This document shows, piece by piece, positions 7,399 through 40,508 of a stretch of DNA of 64,000 bases. Source of the stretch: Halorutilales archaeon Cl-col2-1 (GTDB lineage Archaea; Halobacteriota; Halobacteria; Halobacteriales; Afararchaeaceae); NCBI GenBank assembly GCA_041891055.1, contig CP169075.1, positions 32,001 to 96,000 of the forward strand. The letters are read 5' to 3'. The notes under the pieces are model-generated. The model ran no database searches. It was not told the DNA's origin and worked only from the letters and a program-made list of their open reading frames with translations. The first letter of the stretch is position 1; each line of letters opens with the position of its first letter. Both the position numbers and the translations under genes were made by a program.

Positions 7399-8880
7399 GT
7401 CAACTACCCCACCCTACTTCGCTCACCCTGACGGGTTCGCTCGTTGAGGGTGTCGTCAGAAGCGGAGCTTCTGACTGCTCGCAAATTTACGATTTGTGAT
7501 GGGGCTTGTCGGTGGACTCCGCCTCTGACTCCATAACAGAGTACGAGACAAATCCTCGGTTCGACTTCACAGTCCCCGACTTCAGGGCAAGTTGACTGTT
7601 GCCCGTCCGCCGTGAGTCATGTAGCCCACGACGGACAAACCGCCATCCAACATTCTTCGCCGCGTTATAATCTGCATTCGCCGTCGCACCACACTTCTCA
7701 CACTCGAAGAAATCGCGCTCCGTTCGGTTGCCATCGCTCGTATGACCGCACTCACAACACCGCTTCGACGTATTCTCAGGGTCAACGTACACGACCTCGA
7801 TACCCAGTTCCTCAGCCTTGTACTCGACGTACTTGACGAGTTGGGCGTGCGCCCACTGGTGGAATTTACGCTTGCTCGGCATCGAGTCGCGGATGTGCGT
7901 CAAGTCCTCGAACGCGATGTGCGTACAGTCGTAGGCGACTGCCTCCGCGAGCAACCGATTCGACACCCTGTGCAGGTAGTCACGGTTGTACCGTTCTTCG
8001 CGGTTATCCCGCTGGACGAGTGTGCGATGCGCGGACTCGGTGCCCGTTTCTTGGAGACCACCACGAACGCGCTCGAACTCGCGGTGTTCGTGCAAGAGTT
8101 CTTTCCCGGATTCGAAGTGGGCGGTGCTGGTGACAGCGATGTTTTCGATGCCGAGGTCAACCCCGAGAACTGTCCTGTCCTCGGCGGGCGACTCGTCGGC
8201 ATCGGGTTTCGGCTTACGGAAGCCGAGATGTAAATAGTAGTTGCCGTCACGCGCTGTCAGCGTCGATTCCGTCACTTCCCACTCGTCGCTGTCGAGGTAT
8301 TGGTACTGGTAGCCGTCTTCGTCGTCGGGCAGTACCAATTCGCACCGCACTCGACTGTCGGTGGTGGCGAGGGAGACGGTGTTGTCATCGAACAGGGTCA
8401 TCGTGTTGGCGTCGTACTTCACCGTTGGAGCAGTGAACTCGGGTTTCGAGTAGTTGCGACCCTGCTGTTTGCGTTCATGAACGCCTTTCAATGCTTGTGC
8501 GGCTTGGAAGCACGCGAGGATGGCGTGTTGACTCCCGAGATGAGTTTGGTCACGAACATCGTCGTAGGCGAGCGACTGGAGTTTCCGCTTACGGGTTTCG
8601 TAGTGTTCCCAGCCGATGCCCGTGGCAATGTTTGCACCCGTGCGCCATTCGTCAATCGTGTCTTCGAGCAGGTCGGCCTGCTCAGGAGACACGGAGAGGC
8701 GCGTTATCGCGGTGCGTCTCAGGTAGTCGTCGTCCGACACACGTTCAAAGAATACCTGTGGTTACTTAATAGTTGGTGTCTGACTGGTGTGTGGGTGACG
8801 CGTTCCTCCCCGCCCTACTGCGCCACTCGCTTCGTTGCGTTGATCGTTGAGGACGGGGACTCCGCACTACCGCACAGTTG
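7399..8880 (-). mobile_element. IS200/IS605 family element, tnpB only
   Basis: Right end ...GAAGTAGGGTGGGGTAGTTGAC; left end TTTCAACTGTGCGG...GAGTCCCCGTCCTCAAC hairpin region. The left boundary is approximate. Confidence 0.85.
7487..8740 (-). CDS. tnpB: RNA-guided endonuclease TnpB
   Basis: GVDLG, AFEDL, TSKRCCECG...CEKC, NADYNAAKN. Confidence 0.95.
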   Translation of the reverse strand: MSDDDYLRRTAITRLSVSPEQADLLEDTIDEWRTGANIATGIGWEHYETRKRKLQSLAYDDVRDQTHLGSQHAILACFQAAQALKGVHERKQQGRNYSKPEFTAPTVKYDANTMTLFDDNTVSLATTDSRVRCELVLPDDEDGYQYQYLDSDEWEVTESTLTARDGNYYLHLGFRKPKPDADESPAEDRTVLGVDLGIENIAVTSTAHFESGKELLHEHREFERVRGGLQETGTESAHRTLVQRDNREERYNRDYLHRVSNRLLAEAVAYDCTHIAFEDLTHIRDSMPSKRKFHQWAHAQLVKYVEYKAEELGIEVVYVDPENTSKRCCECGHTSDGNRTERDFFECEKCGATANADYNAAKNVGWRFVRRGLHDSRRTGNSQLALKSGTVKSNRGFVSYSVMESEAESTDKPHHKS

Positions 8881-8991
8881 AAACAGACTATCGTCCCAGA
8901 GTCAAATATCACGCCTACCAGAAACCGCTCGGTAAATATTACTATATGGCGAATATGTGAGATATTCTATAGCACTCACATTCTTTATAAA

Positions 8992-9037
8992 ACTCCAAAG
9001 CAGGTGAGTGTGGTTAGTCTGGTGTTAAGTTGGTTCA
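8992..9037 (+). repeat. Partial repeat: linker plus left half of site A
   Basis: ACTCCAAAGCAGGTG...GGTGTTAAGTTGGTTCA, then unrelated sequence. Confidence 0.75.
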
Positions 9038-9099
9038 TCTACACATTATAGATTAATATTAATGTATTCAGAGAACATCAAACATATACGCTTAATCAA

Positions 9100-10776
9100 A
9101 TGAAAATTTCTTATCAGAATGCGAATCCACGCAAAGGTCACGAAAGCTACTACATCAAATTCGACGATGTCTCCAGCGCCAACACTAACTGTGTGTTAGT
9201 CGACTCCGGAAAACAAGTCGACGTTGAAAACGACTTGGACGACGACGAGTATCTCTCTGCAATACTTCTAACACACGCCCACGCCGACCACTACCAAACA
9301 CTCGTCGAGAATATCCAAGATGGGGCAGAAGTAATTATGACACCAGCTACTGCTTCTATCTTAGAGACTGTACTCTCCGAAGCCTCGAAACACTCCAAGA
9401 TAGATAACCTCGACTGGGAGAGTATAGAGGACTCGATAAAGACTGTAACCGACTGGTACGAGTTATCCTCGAATGTCAAACTACGTCCTGTACCTGCCGG
9501 TCATGTCCCTGGAGCATGTAGCTACCTGATACAGTTTGACGACGATAAACACATACTATCTACGGGAGATTTCACCTTCGACAGGGCGGCGGGATATCCA
9601 CCGATACCAGAAAACGAACTAAGTGAGATCGGTATAGACATACTCTTTCTAAACTCCTCGACCTCACAACCCGGAGAACTCACAGAATCAATAGATGCTA
9701 TCTTAGAACAGGCGATCTCCGGTAGTGATGTCCTCGTGACTGCAAGCGGCATGACCTGTGTCAAATATGTCTATCTTCTCGGACACCTAATAGAAGAAAG
9801 GGACATCAACCTCTCGGTCTCTATAGCTGGGCAAGCAGCTAAGATATACGATGACCTCGACTACGACGTACCAAACGTAACTTCGTATCCTGTCTATGAA
9901 TCTACTGACGAGGTTTTGGAGTCAGATATCTCAGTAGCAGGTCCTGAAAAGCCAGAAGAAGGGTCAAGTAAGATCTTGTTCGATGAGATAAAACACGATC
10001 CTTCAGCAACTCTCGTTCGGATACTCGCAGCTTTCAGCCGCTCGATGGAGTCGGCTAGCTGTACTGTGATGGAGTTCAAACGGGTAAATCATCCCACAGA
10101 AGATGAGATGTATAAGTTCATAGAAGATCTAAACCCAGTACATACCGTAATACAGCACGGTGGCAAGACAAAATGGGGCGACGTATTCGATTTCACTCTA
10201 ACATGGGCAGACGACGAGACCGTATCACGTGTACTGTATTCTAACGGAGACTGGGAAAAACCCGGGTGGCTCAAAGATGAGACATACGAGATGATACTTC
10301 GGAATAACAGGTCACATGGCGAGCCAGATCTCTCCGGTGTAGTTGGAGAAAATCTCGACGAGATAATGACTCCCGAACTACCTAGTCTAGAGATATCAGA
10401 AGAACCTGACTTGGAAAAAGAAGGAGTGGAGTTAGACGAGATTGCTAAAAGAGACCTTCATAGTTCGAGTGAAAACGAGGGCTTCGAAGCTGAGTCTAAG
10501 CCTGAAAAAGAAGTGAGACGTACTTCTGTTCAGAATCGGGAAGATACTGATTTCGAAGGCGAAGACGTTTCTCTACGGGATCTAAAGCAGATACTCGAGA
10601 GAATAGAAAAACAGTTCGATTCTAATTCTAATTCTGAGACCTACGAGGCTTTCGTCGTCGACACAGGCGAAGGAGGAGACTTATTAGTCCGTATTGATGG
10701 ACACACATCAGATGATTTGGATCTAGAGCACGGTCAGATCATCAATGTCTCTCTAGATAATCAAAAGAATAGATAA
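9100..10776 (+). CDS. MBL-fold (beta-CASP-like) metallo-hydrolase/nuclease
   Basis: LVDSG, THAHADH, AGHVPGA, STGDF; acidic C-terminal extension. Confidence 0.85.
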   Translation: MKISYQNANPRKGHESYYIKFDDVSSANTNCVLVDSGKQVDVENDLDDDEYLSAILLTHAHADHYQTLVENIQDGAEVIMTPATASILETVLSEASKHSKIDNLDWESIEDSIKTVTDWYELSSNVKLRPVPAGHVPGACSYLIQFDDDKHILSTGDFTFDRAAGYPPIPENELSEIGIDILFLNSSTSQPGELTESIDAILEQAISGSDVLVTASGMTCVKYVYLLGHLIEERDINLSVSIAGQAAKIYDDLDYDVPNVTSYPVYESTDEVLESDISVAGPEKPEEGSSKILFDEIKHDPSATLVRILAAFSRSMESASCTVMEFKRVNHPTEDEMYKFIEDLNPVHTVIQHGGKTKWGDVFDFTLTWADDETVSRVLYSNGDWEKPGWLKDETYEMILRNNRSHGEPDLSGVVGENLDEIMTPELPSLEISEEPDLEKEGVELDEIAKRDLHSSSENEGFEAESKPEKEVRRTSVQNREDTDFEGEDVSLRDLKQILERIEKQFDSNSNSETYEAFVVDTGEGGDLLVRIDGHTSDDLDLEHGQIINVSLDNQKNR

Positions 10777-11047
10777 CAGCAATCTAATCTTAAAAAGAAG
10801 TCTTAATTAAATAGTTATAAGCTAAAAATAACTCTAATTAAATGATAATATAGACCTATAGAGATATGAAGCTGACTGTCTAAAAGATATTATTCTATAT
10901 CTAAGTGGCTATTTATTAACTAATTACCAGTCACAAACTAAGTATCTACATCTTTATTTAAATTTTTATTTATACTATATTTATAAGTAATGTAAACCTA
11001 ATAAACTTAAAAGACAACAAAGCTGGTTTAATATGTAAAGTAAAACC

Positions 11048-11465
11048 CGATGACAGCCAGATTTGGGCAAACCTAAAAATTAAGCAATTACTTATAAAAA
11101 GAAAACCTGAAAACGCAAGACCTGACAGAGTAAGTAACTAATTATTTAGAACAAACTCTCTCACCAAGATGAAAACGCATGACAGCAAAGAGGTCAAAAC
11201 TATAATCGCAAGACATGACAGAGTAGAATACAAATACGAAAATAACACCTAAATCAAGAAAACCATAATCGCAAGACATGACAGAGTAGACGAATTATCC
11301 AGAAACCATAATCGCAAGACATGACAGAGTAAGAAAATAACAAAAATACATCTCACACCAAAACCACCATACAGCAACGTCATGGATAAATAATTAAACC
11401 GATGACAGAGTAGAATCTTACAAAAACTGAAATCACCCCCTAAACCGCAAGACATGACAGAGTAA
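11048..11465 (+). repeat. Cluster of direct repeats CGCAAGACATGACAGAGTA beside an AT-rich tract
   Basis: Full copies at about 11114 (1 mismatch), 11207, 11270, 11313 and 11446; partial ATGACAG at 11050, 11179 and 11402; AT-rich tract at about 10780-11040. Confidence 0.85.
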
Positions 11466-11660
11466 ACCGAAAAATCGAGCAAAACAACGACCTAGAAAGG
11501 GTGGGGTAATAGGCTGTTTTTGGTGGGTATGCGAATTTGGTGGTTTACGAAATACCAAAATTCGGTTTTGGCGTCTTTTTTGACCCCACGGTTTTGTTTG
11601 AGACAGTATGTGTGAGTGAGTTGTTGATGAGGCAGTTTCTCTAACTTAGTATTGATTGAG

Positions 11661-11852
11661 ATGACTGAAATCAAGACATCGGAAAAAGAGAACACAGAAA
11701 CGAAAACGATAGATCACCGAGTTCCTTTATCTGGTGTGACAGTATACGAAGACGATTATCTAGAGGTAGAGTTTTCACGAAGTGTTTTCGGAAGCGAAGA
11801 AAGGAAGGAAAGAATGGCAGACGAGTTCAGAGATGGCGTAGTATCAGTCTAA
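11661..11852 (+). CDS. Small hypothetical protein
   Basis: 63-aa acidic ORF with no recognisable motif. Confidence 0.4.
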   Translation: MTEIKTSEKENTETKTIDHRVPLSGVTVYEDDYLEVEFSRSVFGSEERKERMADEFRDGVVSV

Positions 11853-12429
11853 TAAAAAGAATACAGGGTAGTATAAAGAAGAAGGCAAAAGATAGTAGTA
11901 TAGACGATAATAGAGTAGATGGACATCATCCAGATGTAGATGTGATAGAGTAGGATGTTTCTCTAAGGGTGTTTCTATGGTGTTACGAGGGAGATATGTA
12001 TGTTAGGTAGTTTTTCGTCTCTATGGCGTTGTGAGAGGCTTTGTGAGAGTGTGAGTACGTGTGTGTCTGTAGTGGTAGTGTCTTCTACATTAGCCTTAGT
12101 GGTGTAGTCATAGTTGGTGTTGTTGACGGTGTCTCTTTTTACCGAAGCCCTCGGTCTTTCGGTCGGTCTGACTCGCTGCGCTCTGGTTTGCCCATAGGTT
12201 GTCCCAGTGCTTGCGTCGTCAGACACGAGCCGAAGAGCCCTCGCCCTTCGTGAGTCCACCGAGGGGTTGGTTTTTCGGCTACTTTACGTCAACACCGGAG
12301 ACACGAGGTTGGGTTTCTGGTTCTAGACGGTACTTTCGCGCTTCCACACAGGGTGTATAGTTGAGAGAGGTATATTGGAATTCTTCTTTGGAGGTGGTTG
12401 GGAGAAGGGCTAGACAACATTAGAGTGAG

Positions 12430-12546
12430 AGCTAACCAACATTTTCGGAGAATTGTCTAGAGATGTTGGTTAGCTAGGGGAGGATACACTCCAAAGCGGG
12501 TGTGGTGGTGTCGGTGTTAAGCTGGGTCAGGTGACTCAGGTTAACA
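12430..12546 (+). repeat. Composite B-linker-A repeat, copy 2
   Basis: Site B at 12430-12475; site A at 12515-12546. Confidence 0.95.
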
Positions 12547-12869
12547 CTTCGTCTAACTACAGTCTCGCTGTGAAGTTCCACACGCCGAAGAACATCGCCA
12601 CCTCGATCACCGTCGAAGCCGCGGAGCTTCTCGAGTTATTCCAGTGGCACGGAAACTTCTCACCGTCTCAGATCAAGGAGAACTCTGAGTTAATGGATGA
12701 GATCGAAGACGAGCTTGCTGATATTCTTCTCTACTGCATGAGCATGGCGATACACTTGGACATTGACCTTGAGGAAGCAGTCGAAAGGAAACTCGAGAAA
12801 AACAAGGAGAGGTATAATGAGGAGAGAGACGACGAGATACGTGAGGAACTAGAAGAATGGCAGGAGTGA
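12531..12869 (+). pseudogene. MazG-like nucleotide pyrophosphohydrolase, native N-terminus missing
   Basis: FHTPKNIATSITVEAAELLELFQW...EDELADILLY...KLEKNKERY; the first ~14 codons derive from site A and filler sequence. Confidence 0.8.
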
Positions 12870-12870
12870 G

Positions 12871-13896: not shown

Positions 13897-14016
13897 TTTT
13901 GATGGCTATAGTTTTGGAAGACTATCAGATAAAGATGTCTCGGAGTTTCTATTTCCCGAGTGAAATCCTCTTTATGCAAGAAAGAGTGAAGTAGAATACT
14001 CTCATACATACTGAAC

Positions 14017-17007: not shown

Positions 17008-17021
17008 GCAACTCAATCTCT

Positions 17022-18392: not shown

Positions 18393-18583
18393 CTAAGCTG
18401 TAACAGGCATGTCGACGCTAATACTGTTACCATACTGTCTGCTTCTTTCTCCCACCTTCTTCAAGCTCTATTGACTCGATTCTTGAATGTCTGATTTACA
18501 AGAAACTCGTACACTTAGACCTCTATATCACGCATATAGACGCTCTCGACGCAGATACAAGTCCGTGAGTGTCCGGTTTTATT

Positions 18584-18768
18584 GGCTTTGGTGAATCGCC
18601 GTACTGAGGTGAATTATAAACGAGAAAGTATACAGCTTCCTCTAAGCCGTCTATTTGAGTTTTGACTTAGATTATCAGCCAAGATACGATGATTTTGGAC
18701 TAGTTTAGCTCAGGAATTCGTACCTGACCCCACCCAATACCGACGCTTCCTAGTGATTCACCAGAGCC
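18584..18768. mobile_element. MITE with IS5-family terminal inverted repeats
   Basis: GGCTTTGGTGAATC...GATTCACCAGAGCC, the same TIRs as 39430-40508; internal sequence similar to 57281-57425. Confidence 0.85.
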
Positions 18769-19183: not shown

Positions 19184-19723
19184 GTGAAGTACCCCGCGCA
19201 CGATGGCGCGGGGCTTCGCCGTTTGGCCTCTTCCCAAGACTGGAAGCGTAACGGCGGCAGGCGAATTTAATTTCCTCCGCACTTCCCAGATGGGTCGTGT
19301 GGGAGCAGTAACACCCGAACACGCCGTGTCTCCTACCGCACTAGAGATCGTCTAGTGCTGCCGTAGGTGGCGTGTCCGTGGAGGTCGGCGGCTTCACCAC
19401 CGCCCGACACACTTGAAGCCCGGCGCAACCTTGCGGTGTTTTGCGAGGCGGATAACGTGGCTCCCGTACTGTAAATATGGTTCGACAGCAACTTGAACAT
19501 ATGGATTGTGCAGCGGAGCGAACGCGCTTCACCCCCGCCCACGGTGTTGACGCAAATCAAAGATTTGCGAAAGTCCCGAGATCTCCGATCTCGTGTGCTC
19601 GCTAATCGGAGATTAGCGAAAGTTGTTAGATCTCCGATCTAACAGCCCGTGAATCTATGATTCACGAAGCCGAAAACCTGCGGTTTTCGGAAGGGCGGGG
19701 AACTCGCGCTGCCTTTCGTTTAG
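19184..19723 (-). mobile_element. Non-coding IS200/IS605 derivative with a structured RNA-like 3' part
   Basis: Homologous (inverted) to 37930-38381; ends ...GGGGTACTTCAC; left-end hairpin CCCCGCCC...GGGCGGGG. Confidence 0.75.
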
Positions 19724-19813
19724 ATATTTTGGTCAGCTATCCAAACCGTCTTGGATTCACAAACTGGTTTGTATGTAGTCTGTGTATGACTTGAAAGAAA
19801 TCAGAATCAACCA

Positions 19814-25983: not shown

Positions 25984-26251
25984 CGTCCTCAAGGAGTCGT
26001 TCGCAAATCTTTGATTTGCGACTGTAGCCAATCAGAGATTGGCATACCTACGAGAACGGAGTTCTCGGGACGGGAGCAAATCTGTGATTTGCGAGCCTGC
26101 GAGAGCAAAGCTCTCGGGACGTTGACGAATCGCAGAGCGATTCGTTCGCACACCAGAACGCCTTGCGTTCTGGGGACGTTCGTCAAACTTTGTTTGACGT
26201 GCCAACAAGATCGGAGATCTTGTGACGGGGCTTGACCCCGAGGCGGTTGAC
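25984..26251 (+). mobile_element. IS200/IS605 end remnant carrying nine short hairpins
   Basis: Ends GGGGCTTGACCCCGAGGCGGTTGAC and abuts the truncated cdc6 at its Walker A motif. Confidence 0.7.
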
Positions 26252-26438
26252 TTTTTCCTACTCCCGTTTTACCGTAAGCAAATATATTCTTGGGAGGGTC
26301 ACAGTTCATCACAGGCTGGAGAATATCAACATACTCAGAGATCTCCTCGTCTCTTTCTTCGATGTCTTCCGGCTCATAGTCTTCTCGAAGTGGGGTCTCA
26401 GTACGGAAAATCGATTCGTCCGGCTCAAAGAGTCCCAT
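26252..26438 (-). pseudogene. cdc6: Orc1/Cdc6 initiator, 5' fragment
   Basis: IFRTETPLREDYEPEDIEERDEEI...PKNIFAYGKTGVGK, then truncated. Confidence 0.88.
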
Positions 26439-26725: not shown

Positions 26726-26740
26726 GTCTTTGATTTGCTG

Positions 26741-26860: not shown

Positions 26861-26869
26861 GGGGCGGCT

Positions 26870-27328: not shown

Positions 27329-27415
27329 CTCTTGAGAGTTAGTTCACCCACGTAGTATGTATATCTTCATCATCCTCAAAAAGGTTAAATAAAAATAGAG
27401 TATTTTGTTATATGA

Positions 27416-29909
27416 ATGTCCGAAGACCTGTCTTCTATTTACGAAGATGTCCGTGACATAGGCTTTTATGCAGGTCAGATAGAATTAGAGAAGACTATTG
27501 AGGGGAATAGTCCCACTTTCGGTGACACTGAAGATGTAGTTAACGAGGTAGGCAAAGAAGTCCTTGACTCCATCGGGATAGACCGCCTGTACAAACATCA
27601 AACAGAAGCGATAGATGCTGTAAACTCAGGGGACAACATAGTAATAGACACACCAACTGCATCGGGTAAGACGATGACCTATGCTATCCCCATGATAGAA
27701 GAAGGTTATCAGGACAACACGAAGTCGATCTACATAGCCCCTCAGAACTCTCTAGTCAATGATCAGACAGAATCAATACGGGAGATGACTTCTTCTATAT
27801 CACCTTCTCCCTTTGATTCTGACTCACAGAATCTTGATAGATTCTCAGATAATAATCTGCCGCCAGGTTCTGTTTCGGTAGCAAGGTATACCGGACAGTT
27901 ATCCCAGACCGAGAAACGGAATGTGAGAAATGAAGAGCCCGAGATCCTGCTGAGTAATCCGGAGATGCTCCACATGTCAGTTCTGCCTTACGCTGAAACA
28001 CACTGGCGGTGGCTTTTTGAGAATCTCAGATACGTGGTTCTCGACGAAGTTCATAGATACCGAGGATACTTTGGGATACATCTATCACTGATACTTCGAC
28101 GTCTAAAGAGAAAAGCCGAGACATTCGGAAGGGATCTGCAGTTTCTATGTGCCTCCGCTACTATACAGAACCCTATAGAACATGCTAGCAGAGTAACTGG
28201 AGAGGATGATGATTCATTTACTCATATCTCCGAGGACTACAGTGCCTCTGGAGACAAACACTGGATGTTCTGGCAACCTCCGGAGAAAGATTCTAAGTAC
28301 ACTAATTTTGACTCTGAATCGGGAGACAGTATTAGTAACAGAAAGTCAAGCCACTCGGAAGCCACCGATATCTTCAGCTACTTTGTGATTGATAGATACC
28401 AGACTCTTGTGTTTACCCGAGCACGTCAAGGTGCAGAATATTATTCTATGGTATCGCAGAGAAGACTACAGGAGATGGGGCATAATGACCTCGCAGAAAA
28501 AGTAACTGCGTACGAAGGAGCGTTAACTGACGACAGACGGGAGGAGATAGAAGAAGGTCTAAAATCTGGTGACACATTAGGTGTCTGGAGTACGAATGCA
28601 CTGGAGCTTGGGGTTGATATAGGCGGTCTAGACGTTGTTATCTTAGACGGATATCCTAAGACCGTCATGTCTACGTTTCAACGAGCTGGTAGAGCTGGAC
28701 GAGGTAAAGACGACAGCGCAGTCGTTTTAGTTGCAGGTAATGACTCTCTCGATCAGTATATCCTCAGAAACCCCGACGATCTCTTCGAGGGCGATCCAGA
28801 GAGAGCTATGGTTAACCCCGCAAACGAGAAGATACTAAAAGACCATCTCGCCTGTGCAGCTTCTGAAAATCCTCTCGAGCTTACTGATAGAACATACTTC
28901 CCCAGTAACTTCATCGATATTGTAGAGGAGATGATCGAAGAAGGACGTCTTGAAGAGAAAGGTACGAAGTCAGAGTCAGAGTCAGGGTCAGGGTCAGGGT
29001 CAGGGTCAGATAGTAGCCACACTAAATTAGAAACCACAGAGGATGGCCCTCACTATTCGATGGCTATCCGAGACATAGACAGTCAGATGATACAGATAGT
29101 CGACAAAACAACGGGGTCGAATATAGCTGAGCTCCAGAGAAGAGACGCTTACCGTGATGCTCATAGAGGCGCCTATTATACCCACCAAGATCAGAATTAC
29201 AAAGTTGAGAACCTCGACTTGAAGGAGAGGCCGTGCCGAAGTAGTCCCTACTAACACTGACCAGATCACACAGACTGTGAGTGAGAAGCAAATAGACATA
29301 CTAAAGAGTAGAAATGGTAAGGTTCTAACTCTTGATACAGGAGATGAAGACGCATATGTCTGGTTCGCTGACGTAAGGGTCAAAGAGTCTTTTCAGAAGT
29401 ATCTCATCCGTGATAGAAGGACTCAGGAGGTATTAGAGGAGTATCCTCTCGATCTGCCGGATATAGAGGTAGAGACTGAAGCTTTCTATATCACTTTACC
29501 CGACAGTCTCAGACGAGATCTGATGGCTGGTATAGAAAGTGGTTCTGAAGATGACGATAAATACCTCGGAGGTCTACACGCTGCTGAACATGGTCTAATA
29601 GCTATGACTCCTAGAGAGGTTCTGTGTGATAGAAATGACCTCGGAGGACTATCTATATCACGTCACGACGGGACTAACGAAGCTACAATATTTGTACACG
29701 AAGGGATAGAAGGTGGTGTAGGTATATGTAAGGAAGCTTTTGAGTCTATCGAGGATCTGATACAGAAGTCTCTTGATATGATAACGACGTGTGGATGTGA
29801 GTCGGGCTGTCCCTCGTGTGTCTACAGTCCTAAGTGTGGTAATAACAACGAGACTATAGATAAAGAAATGTCAGTAGAGATTTTAGAGAAGCTTGCTGGG
29901 AGTCTGTGA
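27416..29909 (+). pseudogene. DEAH-box helicase with C-terminal DUF1998 (Hrq1/SftH-like), frameshifted near 29230
   Basis: PTASGKT, DEVH, SAT, QRAGRAGR in ORF 1; LHAAEH, GGVG and CGCESGCPSC in ORF 2; removing one C in AGGCCGT joins the two frames. Confidence 0.85.
28968..29009 (+). repeat. In-frame hexamer microsatellite (A/G)GTCAG x7
   Basis: Encodes the SESESGSGSGSGS linker. Confidence 0.85.
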
Positions 29910-29955
29910 GAGAGATTGTCTCTAGATCTCCAGAGCGGTAGTGTGGCCTCTATTA

Positions 29956-30478
29956 TTTCAACTTGTGCAGGCGGAGTCCCCGTTCAGAAATCTCAGATTT
30001 CTGAGCCCGCGAGATCGGAGATCTCGGGACGTCCTCAAGGAGTGTTGCGAATCAGAGATTCGCATACGTATGAAAATCTCCGATTTTCAACACACCGCAG
30101 TCCGCTTACGCGGACAAGAAGCGCAGTAGGGCGGGGAGGAAGCCGTATACTTATTGGACTTCGGATATTACCTATAAGTACGTCCATCCGAGCCAACAGT
30201 TGTTCGGATGGATGGGCACCAGTCAACGTCTCCAGATCTTTGATCTGGATGGCTCGGAAATCGGAGATTTCCGAACGTGCCCCGAAGTCCGGAACAATGA
30301 CCCTGAGTGCGGTTCGACCGCCCACGCAGTACGGAACGGTACTGCGGTCGAGGGAGAGAACACGGACAAGCCCCGTTCGTGAATCGAAGATTCACGAGCA
30401 TGCTGAGGGAACCTCAGCATACGCCCTCCACGAGCGAGTGGGCGCAAGCCCCGAGCGAAGTAGGGCGGGGTTGTTGAC
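29956..30478 (+). mobile_element. Non-autonomous IS200/IS605 derivative related to 7399-8880
   Basis: Shares left end TTTCAAC..GCGGAGTCCCCGT..CCTCAA, the tnpB 3'-end sequence (AGTCAAC..GCCC.GAAGTC..ACGGACAAGCCCC) and right end GAAGTAGGGYGGGGTWGTTGAC. Confidence 0.8.
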
Positions 30479-30608
30479 CCATGCTTGACTACTCGGTCTA
30501 AGTGATTCACTCAATGGTTCTCGTTATGCACTTAGAACTACATATGAGAATAAGATAAGTATTAATTGTATAAAAAAGCTTAATCAGTTTCATTTCTATT
30601 TAGCTAAT

Positions 30609-33600: not shown

Positions 33601-36299
33601 GAAAAAATATAAATAAGTCTTCGGGCGGTGACTCCTTTGGGCATATTTGGGAGGGTGAAAATAGTGATATAGAACAATTAAAAGAATTCTATGACTGGAT
33701 GTCAAAATTTGCTCAAAAACTTGATCAAGGAGAATTAACGGAAAAATCTGTAGAAGTATTTTCAAATAATTCGATGGATAGCGAGATTGAAGAGAATAAA
33801 CAAGCAATAAATAAATATAAAGATGATTTTGATGGATCAATTAGGGAACTCGATAAAAAGCTTCAGATATCTTCTGAGGAAGTTTGGGGTAGTGATATAT
33901 ATGAAGTAGAACTCGACTCTATTTCATCTAAATTAAAGACGCTTGAAAAGTCCTCTGAAGATCTAGAAACCTGGTCGAATTTCGATTATACAAGGAAAAG
34001 CACCCGTGACACTATAGCTGAACCAGTAGTTGAACTAGTTAATGAAGGAAAGCTAGCTCCTGAAGATATTGTCCCTTGCTTCAAGGGTAATTTAGCAGAT
34101 AGTCTCCTAACTTCAGTGCTAAAAGAGAGAGAGATATTAGCTCAGTTTGATGAAGAACTCCATGAAGATCGAATTAGAGACTTTCAAGAGCTAGATAGAA
34201 AAAGCATTAAAATTAACCGTAAACGGGTTATCTCTAAGCTGATAGAAAATAAACCACAATTGATGCAAGGAGCATCTAAATCTAGCCCTGTAGGCACACT
34301 ATTACATGAATTTGGAAAAGAAAGACTGCATAAGCCGATACGGGTACTTCTGCAAGAAGCTGGAGATCTAATTCAGGATCTAAAACCTTGTTTCATGATG
34401 AGCCCACTTAGCGTGGCTAAATACTTCGATCCAGGAACAATTGACTTTGATGTTGTTATTTTTGATGAAGCAAGCCAAGTACGTCCAGAAGATGCAATTG
34501 GTACTATACTTCGAGGTGATCAGCTTGTACTTTTTGGAGATACAAAACAACTTCCACCAACTAGTTTCTTTGATAATGTAACAGAGCCTCAAGACTCCGA
34601 TGAGAAATGGGAATTCAAAATGAAAAATGTTGAAAGCATATTGGATCTCTGTCGATCCTCATTACCCTCTAGACGTTTAAAATGGCATTATAGAAGTCGT
34701 CATGAATCACTCATAGCAGTCTCAAACGAGGAATTCTACGACAATGAGCTTGTAGTATATCCATCCCCTATCCAAGACTCTGAAGACCTTGGATTAGAAT
34801 TCAGACATCTCCCCGATACCACGTATGATAGAGGAGGGAGTAGTACAAATAGAGAAGAAGCTAGAAAAGTTGCCGAGGCTGCTATTCAACACTATCAGGA
34901 CAATCCATCAAAGAGTCTAGGAATAGGAACGTTTAGCCAAAAGCAACAAAATGCAGTACTGGAAGAGGTTGAAAGACTAAGAAAGGAAAATCCAGAAATG
35001 GATAAGTACTTCTCTCATGACCAAGAGGAGAATTTCTTTGTTAAGAATCTTGAAAGAATCCAGGGAGATGAAAGAGACGTCATTTTCATAAGTGTTGGTT
35101 ATGGGCGTGACTCAGACGGTAAATTACATAATAACTTCGGGCCGCTAAACCAAGACGGTGGATGGAGACGCCTAAATGTATTGATCACACGAGCTAGAGA
35201 GCGTTGTGTTGTGTTTTCAAATTTTACTGCAGACGAATTAGATGTGAAGTCATCTAGCTCAAGAGGCGTTAAAAGCTTTAAAACATTCTTAGACTATGCT
35301 GAGAATGGAAATCTTAGGTCAATTACCGAAGCTGGTAAAGACCCTGAATCACCTTTTGAAAGAAGTGTAATAAAATTCCTTCAAGAGGAAGGATATGAAG
35401 TACATCCTCAAGTAGGAAGTGCGGGTTTTAGAATAGACCTAGCTATTGCAGATCCAGAAAATCCTGGAAGATATGTTTTAGGAATAGAATGTGATGGGGC
35501 ATCTTATCACTCATCACCTGTAGCACGTGAACGTGATAGACAAAGGCAAGAGATATTGGAAGACAGAGGATGGGATATATATCGAATTTGGTCAACAGAC
35601 TGGTATAGAAATCGTGATAGAGCGAAGGAAAGCCTTGTTGAAGAAGTTGAGAAAGCACTCAACAGAGGCGCATTAACAGTGTCTTCAGATATGAACTCAA
35701 AAATAGAAGAAGATTCTGAAATAACCGAATTAGAAGATACTGAGGGATCGGATACATTCTCTTTAGAGGAATTGTCGACAAAATACGAAAAAACTCAGAA
35801 TATAGGCAAAATAAACCTGAGTAATCATAATCCTGGAGAATTATATTCACCTATTGAAGAAATAATTAAAACAGAATCGCCAATTCATACAGATCTTCTT
35901 ATTCATAGACTCGTATCCAACTCAGATGTTAGTCGGGCAGGAACGAAGATCCAAGAAACAATAAAAAAAGCAGCGGATCGGCTATCAAGGAATGATAAGA
36001 TAGAGAAGAATGGAGAGTTTTTGTACTATAAGGACAAAGAAATTGAAGTCCGAGAGCGCAAGAGTAAAAGGCTAAAAGATATAGAATGGATATCGGAGGA
36101 AGAAATTGAAAAAGGGATAAGAAAGATACTTCAGAATGAGATTGAGACGTCTAAAGACGATTTAATCAAAGAAACTTCTAGGTTATTCGGGTTTGGAAGA
36201 ACTAGTCAAGCCGTCTCAGATAGAATATCAGAGATAGTTGACAGTCTTCATTCATCAAAAAAGATAGAAGAAGAAAATGGCAAGTTACGCTTAAAGTGA
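30609..36299 (+). CDS. DUF4011-SF1 helicase-Vsr-like nuclease-DUF3320 protein (Hhe-like antiviral defence)
   Basis: LLDMSLRNRLLN, GPPGTGKSQT, FDEASQ, GDTKQLPP, IQGDERD, RRLNVLITRAR, ESPFE...RIDLAI...IECDG..YH; low GC. Confidence 0.9.
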   Translation: MSDIQGQIKDAREDLLDMSLRNRLLNFKEYKKSTAKIVNELPSEVYQHLVIDRNKMLFLPQGETLTYEEILPDIEDIIQVIEHDKTCRLCQSEPEVIDDKTGFLEDINSVQGGDHGYGLPIKEINELSDLTETDSDRREEYSNRYLQTPHKESNLQNRLYSITKDSEALIEDAGYNALYLAVGFLKWREAEAQEGSHKAPLILIPVKMERGGVRSDFSLQWNGEEITGNLSLDLKLSEQGFDLPEFTKPEEKIEIKEYLELIDENISDFDGWEVLPEIQLGFFDFTKFLMYQDLDPDNWPSNQKPSNHPLLKGILDNEETLSNPERFNEEKIDEKLSPVDVHNVKDADPSQISVIEDVKRGRDLVVEGPPGTGKSQTIVNMIAELLSEDKKILFVSEKMAALNVVKNRLDSVGIGDFCLELHSEEANKSKVLNELERVSKLSIEDPHIPKETFHKLERKRKKLDEYSDALGSPFGELNKTPYQLFGEKEEAYQHFEEIGKDFPKIDISNAESLSPQEHTESLNTIKELNSRLKKVHPIEDNPWYGCHPGQILPDERKEIEELLRNSTNSLDEIKKINEGLEEDFGVKRASTLNELDKSIETIEILAEDWDVEQETLQKPVWRDNPEKAMELVNDVEEFQDLRSNLSGRVTISSTESPEERISKYNNLHSSFKECLRPAWNDLEISDRPEDIDAKIESISESIDDIRKWEKSIRESIHTHKANNLADLHNLIKITKPISESINIHEELIRDSTWNEMPAEVESLTEKIEKKRKIQNDVGKRVDTERIDRDLPDLLTRYRELSSSYTRFVQLEWYNIKSEISDLYMGDVPSKSKKIEKDIEELMKLDNLKEELQDYDGEGQYLLEPVWNGVDTTPEEIREFSEWMLEIRKGIKRDLITEDTIKIISESNTKYNLDIAEGEQKIENLEGGFEYLSRLGLNSRKIFEKASDDNGLNHVSFESINPVINILQDISDIYVEKVPNVVNKVDSDIQDLIKLNEKRKNINKSSGGDSFGHIWEGENSDIEQLKEFYDWMSKFAQKLDQGELTEKSVEVFSNNSMDSEIEENKQAINKYKDDFDGSIRELDKKLQISSEEVWGSDIYEVELDSISSKLKTLEKSSEDLETWSNFDYTRKSTRDTIAEPVVELVNEGKLAPEDIVPCFKGNLADSLLTSVLKEREILAQFDEELHEDRIRDFQELDRKSIKINRKRVISKLIENKPQLMQGASKSSPVGTLLHEFGKERLHKPIRVLLQEAGDLIQDLKPCFMMSPLSVAKYFDPGTIDFDVVIFDEASQVRPEDAIGTILRGDQLVLFGDTKQLPPTSFFDNVTEPQDSDEKWEFKMKNVESILDLCRSSLPSRRLKWHYRSRHESLIAVSNEEFYDNELVVYPSPIQDSEDLGLEFRHLPDTTYDRGGSSTNREEARKVAEAAIQHYQDNPSKSLGIGTFSQKQQNAVLEEVERLRKENPEMDKYFSHDQEENFFVKNLERIQGDERDVIFISVGYGRDSDGKLHNNFGPLNQDGGWRRLNVLITRARERCVVFSNFTADELDVKSSSSRGVKSFKTFLDYAENGNLRSITEAGKDPESPFERSVIKFLQEEGYEVHPQVGSAGFRIDLAIADPENPGRYVLGIECDGASYHSSPVARERDRQRQEILEDRGWDIYRIWSTDWYRNRDRAKESLVEEVEKALNRGALTVSSDMNSKIEEDSEITELEDTEGSDTFSLEELSTKYEKTQNIGKINLSNHNPGELYSPIEEIIKTESPIHTDLLIHRLVSNSDVSRAGTKIQETIKKAADRLSRNDKIEKNGEFLYYKDKEIEVRERKSKRLKDIEWISEEEIEKGIRKILQNEIETSKDDLIKETSRLFGFGRTSQAVSDRISEIVDSLHSSKKIEEENGKLRLK

Positions 36300-36485
36300 A
36301 ATAAGCGTATGTCATGGATAGGATAAGAAAGGTGGAGTAAAAACACGCTTCATGGGGTTAGTACCAATCTTCGCCCATCTGTGGTAGTGAATATTCAACG
36401 CTAATTCTAGCTATACTTGGCTATTCAGTCTGGTGAATCTACTGGGATGACTAAATAGTACTGTAGAGAACGTGTCATAGAATAG

Positions 36486-36768
36486 GGCTCTGGTGAATCA
36501 CTAGACTGCGTTGGATCAAGCCACTAATTCAAAGGAGATGAAGCGGGAAGTCTCCAATGTCATGTCCAAAATTTCCCGTTTTGGAACGCTTGCGTTCCAA
36601 CATATGTGAATCGAAGATTTTCAGCTGACGAAGCTATGCTTCGTGAAGCCGTGCGTGCGCGTGCCTGGTACAGAGAATTTCGTGAACTCGTCCTGATCTG
36701 CTCTGTCTATAATATCAAACATGTCGTAAAACAGTAAATCAAGCTACGTATGGCGATTCACCAAAGCC
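36486..36768 (+). mobile_element. Internally deleted IS5-family element (MITE-like)
   Basis: Both TIRs plus the first and last transposase codons, matching 39430-40508. Confidence 0.88.
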
Positions 36769-36890
36769 ATCAGAACCATTCTGAAGAGTTCTGGGTCATA
36801 GTAGATTAAGAGCCAGAAAGTGAGTAAAGTGCGGGTCGGTTCTATTAGAAATAACGAGAGCTATATAAGGAGTCATGATAACTACGCAAT

Positions 36891-37850
36891 ATGCCAATTC
36901 TAAAAGAATATGCTGACTCCAACGAAAAGAATGGGTACTACGTCCATGCACATATTTCTGACCGAAACCATCCATTACCTCTACAAACTCCAAAAGTTAC
37001 CAGAAAGATCTACAGTGAACTTGGATACGAACCAACCAAACAAGGGCCAAATGGGGGTGTACAAGTACCCCATGATCTGACTTGGACCCTCTATAATGTT
37101 GGACTACACTGGACCGAAAATTCTGCATCTCAAGGAGATCCTTCAGAACTTGATTCTGATAACCTTCGCAAAGCAGCACAACCAGATTTGACAGAAGAGG
37201 ATATCGAATCAATACTTGAATTCGGAGAAGACTACACGGGTCAATATCAGTCCCAAGTTAGAGATCTTTTGGATGAGTTCTCTAGAGAAGGGCCTACAGA
37301 AACCGACCGTTACTTTGTAACGGAGCTATATGAAGCATCAAAGTCGTTCGGATACCTGATTAGACAGGTATTAGACAGCGACAAGATGGATACAAATGCA
37401 AAGACAAGGGAGTGGGAGTCACGCGTGAGCGAGTTCACCAGTAAAACTGGTGAACTTCAACTCGAAACGCCGGTAGCAGTCTCGGATTACCGTGAAAAGC
37501 ACGGTAAGAACGAAGTAGCGAACGTTCTATCTAACTACGAAGCGATAGATGTGGAACATCTATCCGAAGAGGAACGTGAACTACTCACTAATCACGAAGT
37601 GATTAGTGAGGACTCGGAGTTCTACATCCCCGTTTCACCAGAAACGGGTGAACGACTTCCGGTGTCACCGAGGACTCAAGAAGACCTCGAAGACGCGACC
37701 AAACTCCTAAAGGAGTTTGATCTTGAGGTTCCTGAGTCCGAGTCTACTGACTCAGAGATTAACGGGGATATCGAAGACCTCGCAAAGCACATAGCACTTC
37801 ATACAAGTGCTAATCTCGAAGAAGCCGAAGAAATCCTCGAAAGCTTCTGA
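36891..37850 (+). CDS. Hypothetical acidic protein
   Basis: 319-aa ORF with haloarchaeal composition and no recognised motif. Confidence 0.65.
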   Translation: MPILKEYADSNEKNGYYVHAHISDRNHPLPLQTPKVTRKIYSELGYEPTKQGPNGGVQVPHDLTWTLYNVGLHWTENSASQGDPSELDSDNLRKAAQPDLTEEDIESILEFGEDYTGQYQSQVRDLLDEFSREGPTETDRYFVTELYEASKSFGYLIRQVLDSDKMDTNAKTREWESRVSEFTSKTGELQLETPVAVSDYREKHGKNEVANVLSNYEAIDVEHLSEEERELLTNHEVISEDSEFYIPVSPETGERLPVSPRTQEDLEDATKLLKEFDLEVPESESTDSEINGDIEDLAKHIALHTSANLEEAEEILESF

Positions 37851-37929
37851 AAACGTCTGAGTAGCCGCCCTCCTGCTTTTTAATCATGCCCTGTTAGGGT
37901 TATGCCTGATAATATCAGCGAGCTATTAT

Positions 37930-38381
37930 CTAAAGGATAGACAGCGCGAGTTCCCCGCCCTTCCGAAAACCGCAGGTTTTCGGCTTTCGCAAATCTTTGA
38001 TTTGCGTCAACACCGTGGGCGGGGGTGAAGCGCGTGCGCTTGGCCACGTCCCTGCTTTTAAGTATCGGGACGCCCTACTATGATTTGGAACCCCACGTTA
38101 TCGGCCTCGCAAAACCCGCGCACCTGACGGGTAAGACGCGGTGCGCCGGGCCTGTGTCGCGCCCACGTGAAGGGGCGGACGCCCACGGACACACCCGCCA
38201 CGGCAGCAACAGACGACCTCTGTTGCGGTGGCATTCCCGGTGTGTTCGGGTGTTACCGGTTCCACGCGAGTCCCCGCTGGGGACGAGCGCGGGCGGAATT
38301 AAATTCGCCACCGGTCGTTTCGCTGGGCTCGTGCCAGAGACCACAGCGAAGCCACGGGCCACCGCGCCCGTGGTACTTCAC
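37930..38381 (+). mobile_element. Non-coding IS200/IS605 derivative with a structured RNA-like 3' part
   Basis: Follows TTAT; left-end hairpin; internal TATA-like TTTTAAGTA; ends CCCGTGGTACTTCAC; homologous to 19184-19723. Confidence 0.75.
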
Positions 38382-38616
38382 GTGTGCGGAAGTTATTACG
38401 TGGTAGAAAATGACCGATATACTGTAGGGCGGAACTTTTGATACCCTTGATTAACTGTTACCACAATTGCAGACGTAGAAAACGAAAACGACCGGTTCAG
38501 ATATCTATACAATCTATCATCCAGAGTGTATCACTATCCCAGTCTCTGAGTATAAATTAATACCGCCCCCGACAACCACCTATACTTTATATGTTAAAAG
38601 AACAACTTACTCGTGA

Positions 38617-39351
38617 ATGTTCGAGGCTAGCATCAACGCTGGAGTGCTCCAGTCCGGATTAGATACGGTAGAGAACCTCGTCGACGAGTGTAAGGTTCGT
38701 CTCAAAGAGGATGAACTCTCGATACAAGCTGTGGATCCAGCGAACGTCGGTATGGTCGATCTCTCTATACCTGCTGAGTCTTTCGAGTCCTACAACGGAG
38801 ACAACGAAGTGATCGGTCTCAACATAGAACGTTTCATGGATATCATCGGGATGGCGAACAAAGACGACACGATAGATCTTGAACTCGATCCCGAAACTCA
38901 CAAACTCAAGATACACGTCGAGGGACTGCATTATACTCTTAGTCTTATAGATGCTGACGCTGTTCGACAGGAGCCCGATGTCCCGGATCTAGATCTATCA
39001 AGTGAAGTTGTTGTGGCTGGTAGACAGATAGACCGTGGTGTAAAAGCATCAGGTATGGTGAGTGACCATCTGGAGTTAGGTGTCAACGGTAACTTCTACA
39101 TGCACGCTGAAGGAGACACAGACGACGTGCGTATCGATCTAGATGAGGAGGAGGTTGTTGATCTAGAGGGTGATGACGCACGTTCTATGTTCTCTCTTGA
39201 CTACTTAGAGGACATGTCGAAGGCTATACCCAAAGACGCTCAAGTCAGGATGGAGTTAGGTATCGATCATCCGACTAAGATGCATTTTGATGTCGGGGAT
39301 GGTTCGGCTGATGTTACGTATCTACTAGCTCCTAGGATTGAGAATGAATAG
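38617..39351 (+). CDS. pcn: DNA polymerase sliding clamp PCNA
   Basis: LVDECK, AVDPANVGMVDL, SMFSLDYL, YLLAPRIE; 244 aa. Confidence 0.96.
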   Translation: MFEASINAGVLQSGLDTVENLVDECKVRLKEDELSIQAVDPANVGMVDLSIPAESFESYNGDNEVIGLNIERFMDIIGMANKDDTIDLELDPETHKLKIHVEGLHYTLSLIDADAVRQEPDVPDLDLSSEVVVAGRQIDRGVKASGMVSDHLELGVNGNFYMHAEGDTDDVRIDLDEEEVVDLEGDDARSMFSLDYLEDMSKAIPKDAQVRMELGIDHPTKMHFDVGDGSADVTYLLAPRIENE

Positions 39352-39352
39352 A

Positions 39353-39412
39353 ACTCTCCAGAGCGGGGGTGGATTGTTGGTGTTAAGCTGAGTCAGGTGA
39401 CTCAGGTTAACA
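39353..39412 (+). repeat. Partial repeat: linker plus site A, directly after the PCNA stop codon
   Basis: CTCCAGAGCGGGGGTGG...GG, then TGTTAAGCTGAGTCAGGTGACTCAGGTTAACA (39381-39412). Confidence 0.9.
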
Positions 39413-39429
39413 GTGATTTACAATCCAAG

Positions 39430-40508
39430 GGCTTTGGTGAATCGCCATACGTAACTTGATTTACTGTTTTACGGCATGTTTGATGTTGTAGACAGAGCAG
39501 ATCAGGACGAGTTCACGAAACTCTCTGTACCAGGCACGCGCACGCACGGCTTCACGAAGCATAGCTTCGTTAGCTGAAAATCTTCGATTTTAAGCAGTGC
39601 CGAGCGTGCGCTTGATGTTTGAGAAGACGGTTTCAGACATGGATCTTTGACCATAGAGAGACCCATCGACCCTGGTGTCGCAAATCTGAGATTTGCGTAC
39701 ATCCAAAAATCAGAGATTTTTGAATATGCTGTGTACCTGATCGATGGGTCGGAACTCACGGTGTTTGGTGAGTTGTCTTACGTCTTCTTCTCGTAATTTT
39801 TCACGTAGTTTCATCCAGTCATAGCCTTTGTCGGCAGCGAGGGTATGCAGGTCACCTGCGTTCCGCAGTGCGACCTGCAAGCCGAGCTGAGTATCATGGC
39901 GTTTCTCAGTCGTGCAGTGAAGGTCAAGGACTGCTTGAGTTTCTGTGTCGACGAGGGCTGTAGCTTTGAGTGTCTGGACACGGTAATCCGTCCTACGGCA
40001 GTAGTGTTTGCTAGCGTTTTCTCGGTCGAAGTAAGTAGAGTCCATAGCAGTGTGACCGGTGTTGTCATGTAGTTCCGAGGAGAGACGGAGAAGTACTCTC
40101 CATACACCCATCTCTATCCTATCGAATGCTTTGACTAGGGTTGAATGGTGAGGGAGATCGTCCTCTTCGAGGCCGATCTCCTCAAGGATTCTTGGCATCT
40201 CGCTCAACAGATCGAGTGCTTCTCGGTAGGATTTCTCCAAGTAAATCCGTAGACAGTGGAGAGAAACGATGGCGTAATCCGCGAAGCCGCCACCCTGCTC
40301 TGGGGCGGCGGCTTCGCTCCGACCACCAACAGCGTTTTTAGCTAATGTCACGACTCTATCAGTGAAGTGCTGTGAATCGAAGATTCACATGCGTTGGAAC
40401 GCTTGCGTTCCAAAACGGGAGATTTTGGACATGTCACCGAAAACTTCCCGCTTCATCTCCTTTGCATTAGTGGCTTAATCCAACGCAGTCTAGTGATTCA
40501 CTAGAGCC
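39430..40508 (-). mobile_element. IS5-family element with transposase pseudogene
   Basis: TIRs GGCTYTRGTGAATC; MSKISR/FTDRVVTLAKNAVGG, MDST, ADKGYD, ETVFS; disrupted by three hairpin-pair insertions. Confidence 0.9.

Follow-up and report, generated by a model that had tools for sequence, protein, structure and literature searches.

Double-hairpin units of about 49 nt, fixed in architecture and variable in sequence, in a halobacterial genome

What are the pairs of short perfect hairpins that recur in the DNA of Halorutilales archaeon Cl-col2-1, alike in build and diverse in sequence, and how did they come to stand where they do? The stretch in question (the window, 64,000 nt) is positions 32001-96000 of contig C2 (116 kb, 49.6% G+C), and the counts given below extend to contig C1 of the same genome, G000 (1.94 Mb, 55.4% G+C). 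A preliminary description of the window had proposed a family of discrete inserted units of ~49 nt with a short repeated flank, set by architecture and not by sequence, and this is borne out by filled and empty alleles and by near-identical recurrences. The units are discrete insertions that spread by copying into unrelated places.

The hairpin module and the unit

Hairpins with a perfect stem of at least 7 bp and a 3-nt loop were counted, with three order-2 Markov simulations used as controls. Each of the 11 places named at the outset holds such hairpins, with stems of 7-9 bp and most of them topped by ATC-NNN-GAT; by our own count from the list there are 39 in the window. Contig C2 has 59 as against 6-12 in the simulations, and contig C1 has 454 as against 202-228 (~2x chance), the excess being much sharper for hairpins topped by ATC-NNN-GAT (175 in C1, 6 simulated). 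Stem lengths in C1 (7 bp, 214 cases; 8 bp, 125; 9 bp, 114; 10 bp, 1) stop abruptly at 9 bp, which fits a fixed module of 21 nt (9-3-9). When at least 8 of the 9 stem positions are required to pair, C1 and C2 together contain 92 arrays of two or more hairpins (66 of two, 8 of three, 13 of four, 1 of five, 3 of six and 1 of seven), and the same test on simulated sequence gave 220 singles and zero arrays. The pairing is therefore real. Also, 43 hairpins with the ATC top are seemingly single, and in most of these the partner has a 4-nt loop or a decayed stem.

Adjacent hairpins in C1 and C2 are 21-28 nt apart, with a mode of 24-25 nt, and of 54 distances to the next hairpin but one, 21 measure 49 nt and 10 measure 48 nt. 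Unit lengths were taken from 50 non-identical units of the form T...A, one flank dinucleotide being counted in the length: 13 are 48 nt long, 30 are 49 nt, 1 is 50 nt, 5 are 51 nt and 1 is 52 nt. The expected length mode near 49 nt therefore exists, both among the units themselves (30 of 50) and as the peak of the next-but-one spacing. The commonest unit reads T, a 9-3-9 hairpin, GC, GCC or GGC, a second 9-3-9 hairpin, A. The two hairpins of one unit differ, their AATC-NNN-GATT tops, which are the usual kind, being the only part in common, and 120 of 124 hairpins have C at position 9 together with G at position 13. On pooling 62 non-identical isolated pairs, the consensus directly before the first module is C-G-T and, by symmetry, A-C-G after the second, with a linker that is mostly GC, GGC or GCC. 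CG stands on both sides in 32 of the 50 units, so that the joints of arrays read A-CG-T. An identical dinucleotide is present on both sides in 35 of 50 (2000 shuffles gave a mean of 24 and a maximum of 31).

The plain pair is not universal, contrary to what was first supposed. The array at 26 kb consists of nine hairpins, arranged as a 73-nt block of three followed by units of 49, 57 and 49 nt. Elsewhere also there are 57-nt units with 7-nt linkers, units that end in ...ATAC, blocks of three or four hairpins of 73, 97 and 105 nt, and 113-nt elements that have a hairpin pair as their core. The proposed emphasis on GNA triloops holds in part, as GAA/TTC, GGA/TCC and GTA/TAC are common loops, but AAA/TTT and AGA/TCT are common too. 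Genome-wide, the first loop base is C in only 2 of 124 hairpins and the last is G in none of the 124; loops are mostly all-purine or all-pyrimidine, with occasional flips between paralogues (gta versus tac).

The stems vary freely and stay paired. The 143 distinct 21-mer hairpins carry 92 distinct arms, each of the stem positions 3-6 uses all four Watson-Crick pairs, and these positions are paired in 139-141 of the 143, in a set that was preselected for at least 8 of 9 pairs, so that the pairing is partly there by construction and the excess over chance rests instead on the simulation and array counts given above. On folding as single-stranded DNA, all seven units taken formed both hairpins on either strand, with z values of -3.9 to -8.0, and a short CGT/ACG stem closed the fold in 3 of the 4 CG-flanked units folded (in one of them on both strands). 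The unit thus looks alike on both strands. We infer that the element is recognised in its folded form, single-stranded or cruciform, since this is the only reading that explains stems that are perfect and yet variable on both strands.

Filled and empty sites, copies and targets

The units of the window, with their sites, are as follows; insertion sequence is abbreviated as IS, and positions on C1 or elsewhere on C2 are given with the contig.

About 7437/7438, empty target site, at which paralogues carry one unit (49 nt) or two (97 nt)
7455-7499, hairpin pair 3' of the stop of a tnpB gene (8740-7487, minus strand); 7455-7475 is a perfect 9-3-9 hairpin and 7479-7499 a decayed one
19551-19569, first hairpin of an older 'base' pair, in the loop of an IS605-type end palindrome (CCCCGCCC...GGGCGGGG)
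19574-19622, inserted unit of 49 nt (T...A plus AG), flanks AG..AG, missing in the 38-kb copy
19623-19669, second insertion, 47 nt long (T...A plus AG), which follows 19574-19622 in tandem and is likewise missing in the 38-kb copy
19670-19690, second hairpin of the base pair
26000-26072, three-hairpin block of 73 nt including CG; at C1:683925 the same block is inserted as compared with the empty site C2:114333
26073-26121, unit of 49 nt with the end GGACG
26122-26178, unit of 57 nt with the 7-nt linker TCGCACA, its family recurring at C1:518053, C1:1804892 and C1:1827075
26179-26227, unit of 49 nt, 100% identical to units at C1:35566 and C1:1208179 in unrelated flanks
29983-30031, unit of 49 nt, flanks CG..CG, hairpins at 29984 and 30010
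30045-30092, unit of 48 nt, flanks TG..CA, hairpins at 30046 and 30071
30229-30277, unit of 49 nt, flanks CG..CG, hairpins at 30231 and 30254, empty paralogue at C1:526745
30376-30423, unit of 48 nt, flanks CG..CG, hairpins at 30377 and 30400
36581-36644, remnant of an IS5-type copy (contig joint 36578-36648) with the hybrid hairpin arms TGTGAATC and GATTTTCA
37963-38006, inverted copy of the base pair (hairpins at 37963 and 37988) in which both extra units are lacking, and which serves as the empty allele of 19574-19669
39551-39595, unit of 45 nt in the IS5-type transposase gene (hairpin at 39554), flanks GC..GC, 15 codons with a stop, empty paralogues at C1:305369 and C1:1293940
39678-39728, unit of 51 nt in the same gene (hairpins at 39679 and 39704), 17 codons with a stop, empty paralogue at C1:305289
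40370-40417, unit of 48 nt in the same gene (first hairpin at 40371), 16 codons with a stop, empty paralogue at C1:304582-304731

The spacings of 49, 49, 49 and 47 nt and the duplicated flanks that were measured at the beginning are correct. There are six perfect hairpins in 19551-19690 and nine in 26001-26223, and the second hairpin of the unit at 40370-40417 (40394-40413) has a 4-nt loop. At the junctions, one of the two copies of CG often reads TG or CA (for example 30043-30044, 39676-39677 and 40368-40369) even though CG is not hypermutable across the genome, which may reflect deamination at exposed single-stranded junctions. Two open reading frames (ORFs), 25989-26438 (149 aa) and 29916-30488 (190 aa), traverse hairpin arrays and have no Pfam match; they are probably not genes, and the stretches around them are multi-copy in metagenome contigs.

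Comparison of filled and empty paralogous sites within the genome gave inserts of 45, 51, 43, 49, 73, 49 and 97, 49, and 96 (49+47) nt. The last of these is the pair of extra units that had been noted at 19.6 kb relative to the 38-kb homologue, and they are indeed 19574-19622 and 19623-19669, lacking in 37963-38006. Likewise, three units of 15, 17 and 16 codons, in frame and each with a stop, disrupt the IS5-type transposase as described, the gene being intact (283 aa) at about C1:304.6-305.5 kb. Metagenome contigs aligned to the window (30.7-36.1 kb is almost without cover, hence uninformative there) skip 49 nt (from 30224 to 30274, with 5 shared letters) and 48 nt (30373 to 30422, 2 shared), and some omit the 26122-26178 unit jointly with the next one (106 nt, 26117 to 26224, 4 shared letters). 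The skipped stretches lie at 3-5x the neighbouring depth, so these contigs are other copies of the repeat and no proof of variation at the locus. The sister species (G025; 910 kb retrieved, 809 kb aligned, 7.65% difference) allows a comparison between genomes, in which 21 of the 38 indels of at least 35 nt carry 9-3-9 hairpins, including ones of 45, 48, 48, 49, 51, 52, 97, 105, 155 and 194 nt.

The same sequences recur in other surroundings. In a set of 54 T...A units, 48 have a copy of at least 80% identity in unrelated flanks and 26 one of at least 90%, with several at 100%, and loops are usually conserved within an element family. An exact 12-mer shared with the surrounding 300 nt, as expected of a local template, was found for only 13 of the 54, and mostly comes from neighbouring units that have the same stem. 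These counts bear on the view that the hairpins form on the spot by slippage, fold-back synthesis or repair, with one arm copied from the other. Such an origin would suit stems that are perfect though variable, and loops that are sometimes flipped between paralogues (gta versus tac), but the linkers and ends are conserved, the loops are usually kept within a family, and 48 units are copied elsewhere against 13 matched locally; it is largely refuted, and we leave it hardly any credence. Mobility is favoured by the same test. Empty and filled alleles, together with copies in unrelated flanks, thus make these real miniature mobile elements and not products of local slippage.

As to where the units go, all copies had been placed in IS-derived DNA, and this is true for the window only, since elsewhere they lie in frame within intact genes, essential ones among them (those for an M24 peptidase, ThiN, a Hel308-like helicase and an integrase). 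Arrays avoid coding sequence as a rule (median longest open frame of 122 codons, as against 372 at random places), with at least 5 inside open genes, and many flank tnpB genes, ~1.4 kb apart. The targets include the loop of the IS605-type end palindrome just after the sole tnpA gene, the loop of a palindrome CAAGCC...GGCTTG and, in the IS5 gene, the loop of an 11-bp palindrome (unit 39678-39728) and the tip of a small hairpin (unit 39551-39595). The CG at the edge of an existing unit is targeted also, which builds tandem arrays (as in a 155-nt cross-species case). Units stack beside and inside one another, and the sites they favour are the borders of units already in place and the loops within IS605-type end palindromes.

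Within genes, one 48-nt unit lengthens the M24 peptidase by 16 residues that are missing in an orthologue of 92% identity. ThiN of both species has 16-17 added residues, a peptide nearly that of the M24 peptidase and of the same element family, which is not present in the two more distant genera that gave an aligned orthologue. The Hel308-like helicase has a 105-nt block of four hairpins, to which the sister species adds a 48-nt unit at the same spot, and the integrase gene differs from that of the sister species by 99 nt with hairpins, a difference that may be a deletion in the latter between repeated stems. Also, in this genome a hairpin pair lies within the open PolB frame, in its intein part. 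The measurable lengths added in open genes are 48, 48, 99 and 105 nt, all multiples of three, as expected if other lengths are purged; units survive within genes only if the added length is a multiple of three. They can also promote loss. In the IS5-type remnant at 36540-36700 two different hairpin units recombined at their AATC-GAA-GATT tops and the core was lost; in the sister species, too, a hybrid hairpin stands at a place where 49 nt are missing. Shared hairpin tops cause deletions.

The class-wide occurrence was estimated with the pattern ATC-N3-GAT, 13-19 nt, ATC-N3-GAT, the reversed pattern being the control. At least one match is present in 274 of 401 Halobacteria genomes, with 0-2 per genome for the control. 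The present genome has 81 matches, the sister species 59, two genomes of genus g73 have 49 and 18, one g24 genome has 15, and others have 0-11. The g73 loci are 0.60-0.69 in G+C, which rules against g73 being Haloquadratum. Genome G292 has also units of this build that are rich in G+C and lack the ATC/GAT top, so the pattern undercounts the family. Such a spread, together with the strong conservation of the AATC-NNN-GATT top and of the closing C-G, could suggest that the pairs are selected functional sites (for protein binding, RNA structures or terminators) and not selfish DNA. The units, however, break a transposase gene with stops and sit in unrelated enzymes, their copy number differs ~100-fold between genera, and no Rfam family matches the hairpins or units at the gathering threshold across the whole window. 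We consider a role of this kind highly improbable.

Known systems and the candidate enzyme

The family is abundant and real, and its nearest described relatives are the small mobile repeats (SMRs) and the palindrome-associated transposable elements (PATEs). As far as the cited account goes (Dyall-Smith et al. 2011, PMC3119063), the SMRs of Haloquadratum walsbyi are SMR-A (HqIRS42, 43 and 55) and SMR-B (HqIRS40 and 41), and their mobilisation is termed 'enigmatic' by its authors. Both they and the units here are small haloarchaeal repeats without genes that nest in near-terminal palindromes of IS605-type transposons or PATEs and target other mobile elements, to the extent that the SMRs are described there. 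Insertion into IS605-type palindromes is seen here in the loop beside tnpA and in regions downstream of tnpB, and units occur elsewhere too. The 113-nt elements with a hairpin-pair core match the reported size of SMR-A. Two such insertions are species-specific (G000 C1:100969 and G025 C1:34573, locus L015), and consist of a hairpin pair with the linker TGTACC and extra outer hairpins.

The differences from the SMRs as described there are several. SMR-A is ~110 bp and SMR-B at least 80 bp long, whereas the units here are 45-51 nt (all 50 T...A units are 48-52 nt with one flank dinucleotide, and only two 113-nt composites were found). SMRs are described as having prominent terminal inverted repeats, as against CGT...ACG alone, and no target duplication; here the same dinucleotide stands on both sides (35 of 50, with two cross-species exceptions), which may be either a 2-bp duplication or a choice of CG as the insertion site. 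Identity within an SMR type is usually >95%, whereas the stems here are very diverse. Unlike what is told of SMRs, the units here also lie in frame within genes.

PATEs are gene-less palindrome-associated elements derived from IS200/IS605, and one small mobile element of the same account, HqIRS46, is reduced from 390 bp to fused ends of 52 bp (PMC3119063). With PATEs, as there described, the units share the hairpins, the want of genes and of inverted terminal repeats, and presumably movement as single strands by Y1; a Y1 (HUH) transposase that could act in trans is present (C1:979038-979397). PATE palindromes resemble the parent IS605-type element in that description, whereas the hairpins here are of a separate, uniform 9-3-9 kind, and the IS end palindrome CCCCGCCC...GGGCGGGG is unlike them (one IS end was examined). 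PATEs are said there to insert without a flank repeat; the units here insert into an IS end palindrome, with the flank dinucleotide repeated. IS200/IS605 derivatives insert 3' of a fixed short target in a strand-specific way; here CG is preferred in 32 of 50 units, AG, GC and CA flanks co-vary on both sides, and the unit looks the same on either strand. By eye, the flanks of four copies of the IS end have no target motif in common.

Other systems are more distant. REP and REPIN sequences are short multicopy palindromes with a GTAG head, often in inverted pairs and extragenic, and a Y1 HUH enzyme, the REP-associated tyrosine transposase (RAYT), presumably acts on them as folded single strands. 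The units here are likewise short multicopy palindromes with a conserved short head, and a six-hairpin array stands 50 nt from a Y1 gene, but the head is CGT and not GTAG, the hairpins of a pair differ, and units are present in genes too. The Y1 protein is not a RAYT, scoring 26.1 bits with the model of that family against a cut-off of 80. The Rickettsia palindromic elements (RPE) are described in a review (PMC10969869) as ~150 bp long and in frame in unrelated housekeeping genes, to which they add a conserved peptide. They resemble the present units in being palindromic selfish repeats in frame, here adding nearly the same peptide to the M24 peptidase and ThiN, a likeness of behaviour only and not of descent; they differ in their length, in being bacterial, in having no double 9-3-9 architecture and in showing no sequence relation. 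MITEs, according to the same review, have the terminal inverted repeats of a parent IS and that IS's duplication length. The units agree with them in being non-autonomous, short, multicopy, with a repeated flank and mobilised in trans, but no parent IS and no such terminal repeats were found here. No long element with unit-like ends was seen among the partnerless hairpins. A comparison of a plasmid collection with window positions 29900-30500 gave 2 weak records only and is uninformative. In the literature on haloarchaeal mobile repeats, PATEs and archaeal in-frame palindromes we found no 45-51-nt double-hairpin unit, which is not proof of absence in print. What is new here is the genome-wide census, the definition of the unit and its flanking bases, the filled and empty alleles between species, the insertions in frame within genes and the deletions.

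The reading we prefer, with a probability of roughly 60%, is that these are a shape-defined superfamily of miniature gene-less mobile elements that are read as folded DNA, with a Y1 (HUH) transposase as the leading candidate for the enzyme. A unit made of T, a hairpin, a G/C linker of 2-3 nt, a second and different hairpin and A (45-49 nt) is inserted at a dinucleotide, mostly CG, which then stands on both sides and gives the 47-51-nt period and the ACGT junctions of tandem arrays. An enzyme supplied in trans, for which the IS200/IS605 Y1 transposase is the foremost candidate, would recognise the DNA when folded as a single strand or cruciform, make its cuts behind the flanking CG and behind the unit's own terminal CG, and paste the unit behind a CG that is exposed in a single strand. 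In favour of Y1, the targets are prone to single-strandedness, and every inserted unit brings a new CG target at its end, from which tandem arrays would follow. The genome has one intact Y1 gene (C1:979038-979397), which matches the IS200/IS605 equivalog model with 159.5 bits against a cut-off of 55, with a tnpB gene alongside and an array of six hairpins 50 nt downstream. The genome also encodes tyrosine recombinases, but their presence is uninformative. A serine recombinase or IS607-type driver was considered and dropped, as the Resolvase family is unmatched in this genome, which is 99.5% complete (the sister species has one).

Several points weigh against this reading, some against Y1 and some against the mobility of single units. 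Co-occurrence with a candidate enzyme had been suggested as a check, and here the Y1 transposase is no discriminator: each of the 5 other genomes tested has such genes, even one that has no match to the pattern, so presence explains nothing. The geometry of IS608 comprises a guide tetranucleotide 5' of the hairpin foot and a cleavage site 10-19 nt away, and neither was seen at the units. Also, peel-and-paste transposition leaves no target duplication, whereas one element family here has CG..CG at C1:1208228 and AG..AG in the window, and GC..GC and CA..CA flanks match single copies in the empty sites. A flank dinucleotide that co-varies on both sides fits a true 2-bp duplication better, and a 2-bp target duplication also describes the repeated flank better than a recombination core does. 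In 3 of ~11 clean cross-species cases the dinucleotide of the empty site is CT, TT or TG and not CG, and there is no repeated flank in two such cases (a 97-nt four-hairpin element and a 48-nt unit ending in ...ATAC). Hypermutability of CpG was rejected as the cause of the non-CG empty sites, because CG is more frequent than expected (1.29) and its rate of change (12.2%) is average. In g73 and G292, one homogeneous pair stands in a constant context of at least 150 nt (7 and 3 copies), so that there the pair may only travel with a larger repeat. Finally, some apparent insertions are deletions between repeated stems or tops (49 nt at C1:246299, 99 nt at C1:1837301).

The behaviour of the flanks would suit movement of the same elements as double-stranded DNA, by a transposase that makes a 2-bp staggered cut with a preference for CG and so leaves a true duplication. 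IS630/Tc1 elements, for comparison, have a TA target-site duplication. The identical dinucleotides in 35 of 50 units, the agreement of the non-CG flanks AG, GC and CA with the single copy in the empty site, and the one family with CG..CG at one site and AG..AG at another all point this way. There are, however, no terminal inverted repeats beyond CGT...ACG, a protein that reads the duplex gives no reason for two perfect 9-bp stems of varying sequence, no candidate gene was found, and the preference for palindrome loops points to single-stranded targets. We regard it as unlikely, though with a real chance.

The constant contexts of g73 and G292 would also agree with units that are immobile alone, being hairpins built into IS605-type or PATE ends, whose presence or absence comes about by gene conversion and deletions. 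The deletions between hairpin tops and repeated stems that do occur, and the many arrays that flank tnpB genes ~1.4 kb apart, are in line with this. But unique genes (M24 peptidase, ThiN, helicase, integrase) contain single units whose surroundings are free of further repeat DNA and whose sites are empty in orthologues, identical units are found in unrelated flanks, and the borders of indels coincide exactly with those of units, so that we think hitch-hiking of this sort quite improbable as the general case.

A bolder form of the preferred reading, that of a mobile element recognised as folded DNA, is more doubtful and is put forward tentatively. By it the units would be the smallest self-contained mobile DNA, a two-hairpin dumbbell of 47 nt without sequence-specific ends, of which the hairpin geometry and the AATC/GATT top alone would be recognised. 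It would be moved as folded single-stranded DNA, possibly as a circle with an ACGT joint, either by hyperparasitism on Y1 or by a new structure-specific integrase that duplicates 2 bp, and passage through the folded state would keep the drifting stems perfect.

Neighbouring features and meaning

Some other features of the window stand beside the units. At either end of the 18-kb segment 19690-37963 stands a copy of one IS605-type end sequence, the two being inverted; between them are a helicase-nuclease pair (UvrD/PD-(D/E)XK), a DEAD helicase and its MZB (DUF1998-type) partner, and a PCNA gene. Also in it is a protein of 1896 aa with matches below cut-off to the models of the anti-phage systems ProA and Hhe (1427.8 against 1500 and 1151 against 2000). 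The segment resembles a defence island and may be mobile as one block. At 37300-37815 there are seven longer perfect hairpins of another kind at irregular spacing (stems of 8-12 bp, loops of 3-5 nt, no ATC/GAT top), within the ORF 36891-37850 (319 aa), which has no Pfam or NCBIfam match. The sole Rfam match in the window is sot0042 at 4402-4561 on the minus strand, at the 3' end of a tnpB gene (4440-5783), with 88.4 bits against a gathering threshold of 88.

SMRs have been known since 2011 (PMC3119063), and the present units shrink the problem of their mobilisation to ~47 defined nucleotides. The natural filled and empty sites and the many variants make a ready minimal substrate for identifying the enzyme and what it reads. 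For annotation, the units account for many short indels between close species (21 of the 38 of at least 35 nt) and create false ORFs, such as window 29916-30488. They can inactivate other transposons, and their shared tops can seed deletions. As selfish palindromes of an archaeon they enter a helicase, a peptidase, a thiamine enzyme and an integrase in frame, and, if the dumbbell reading is true, such in-frame landings would remodel essential archaeal proteins.

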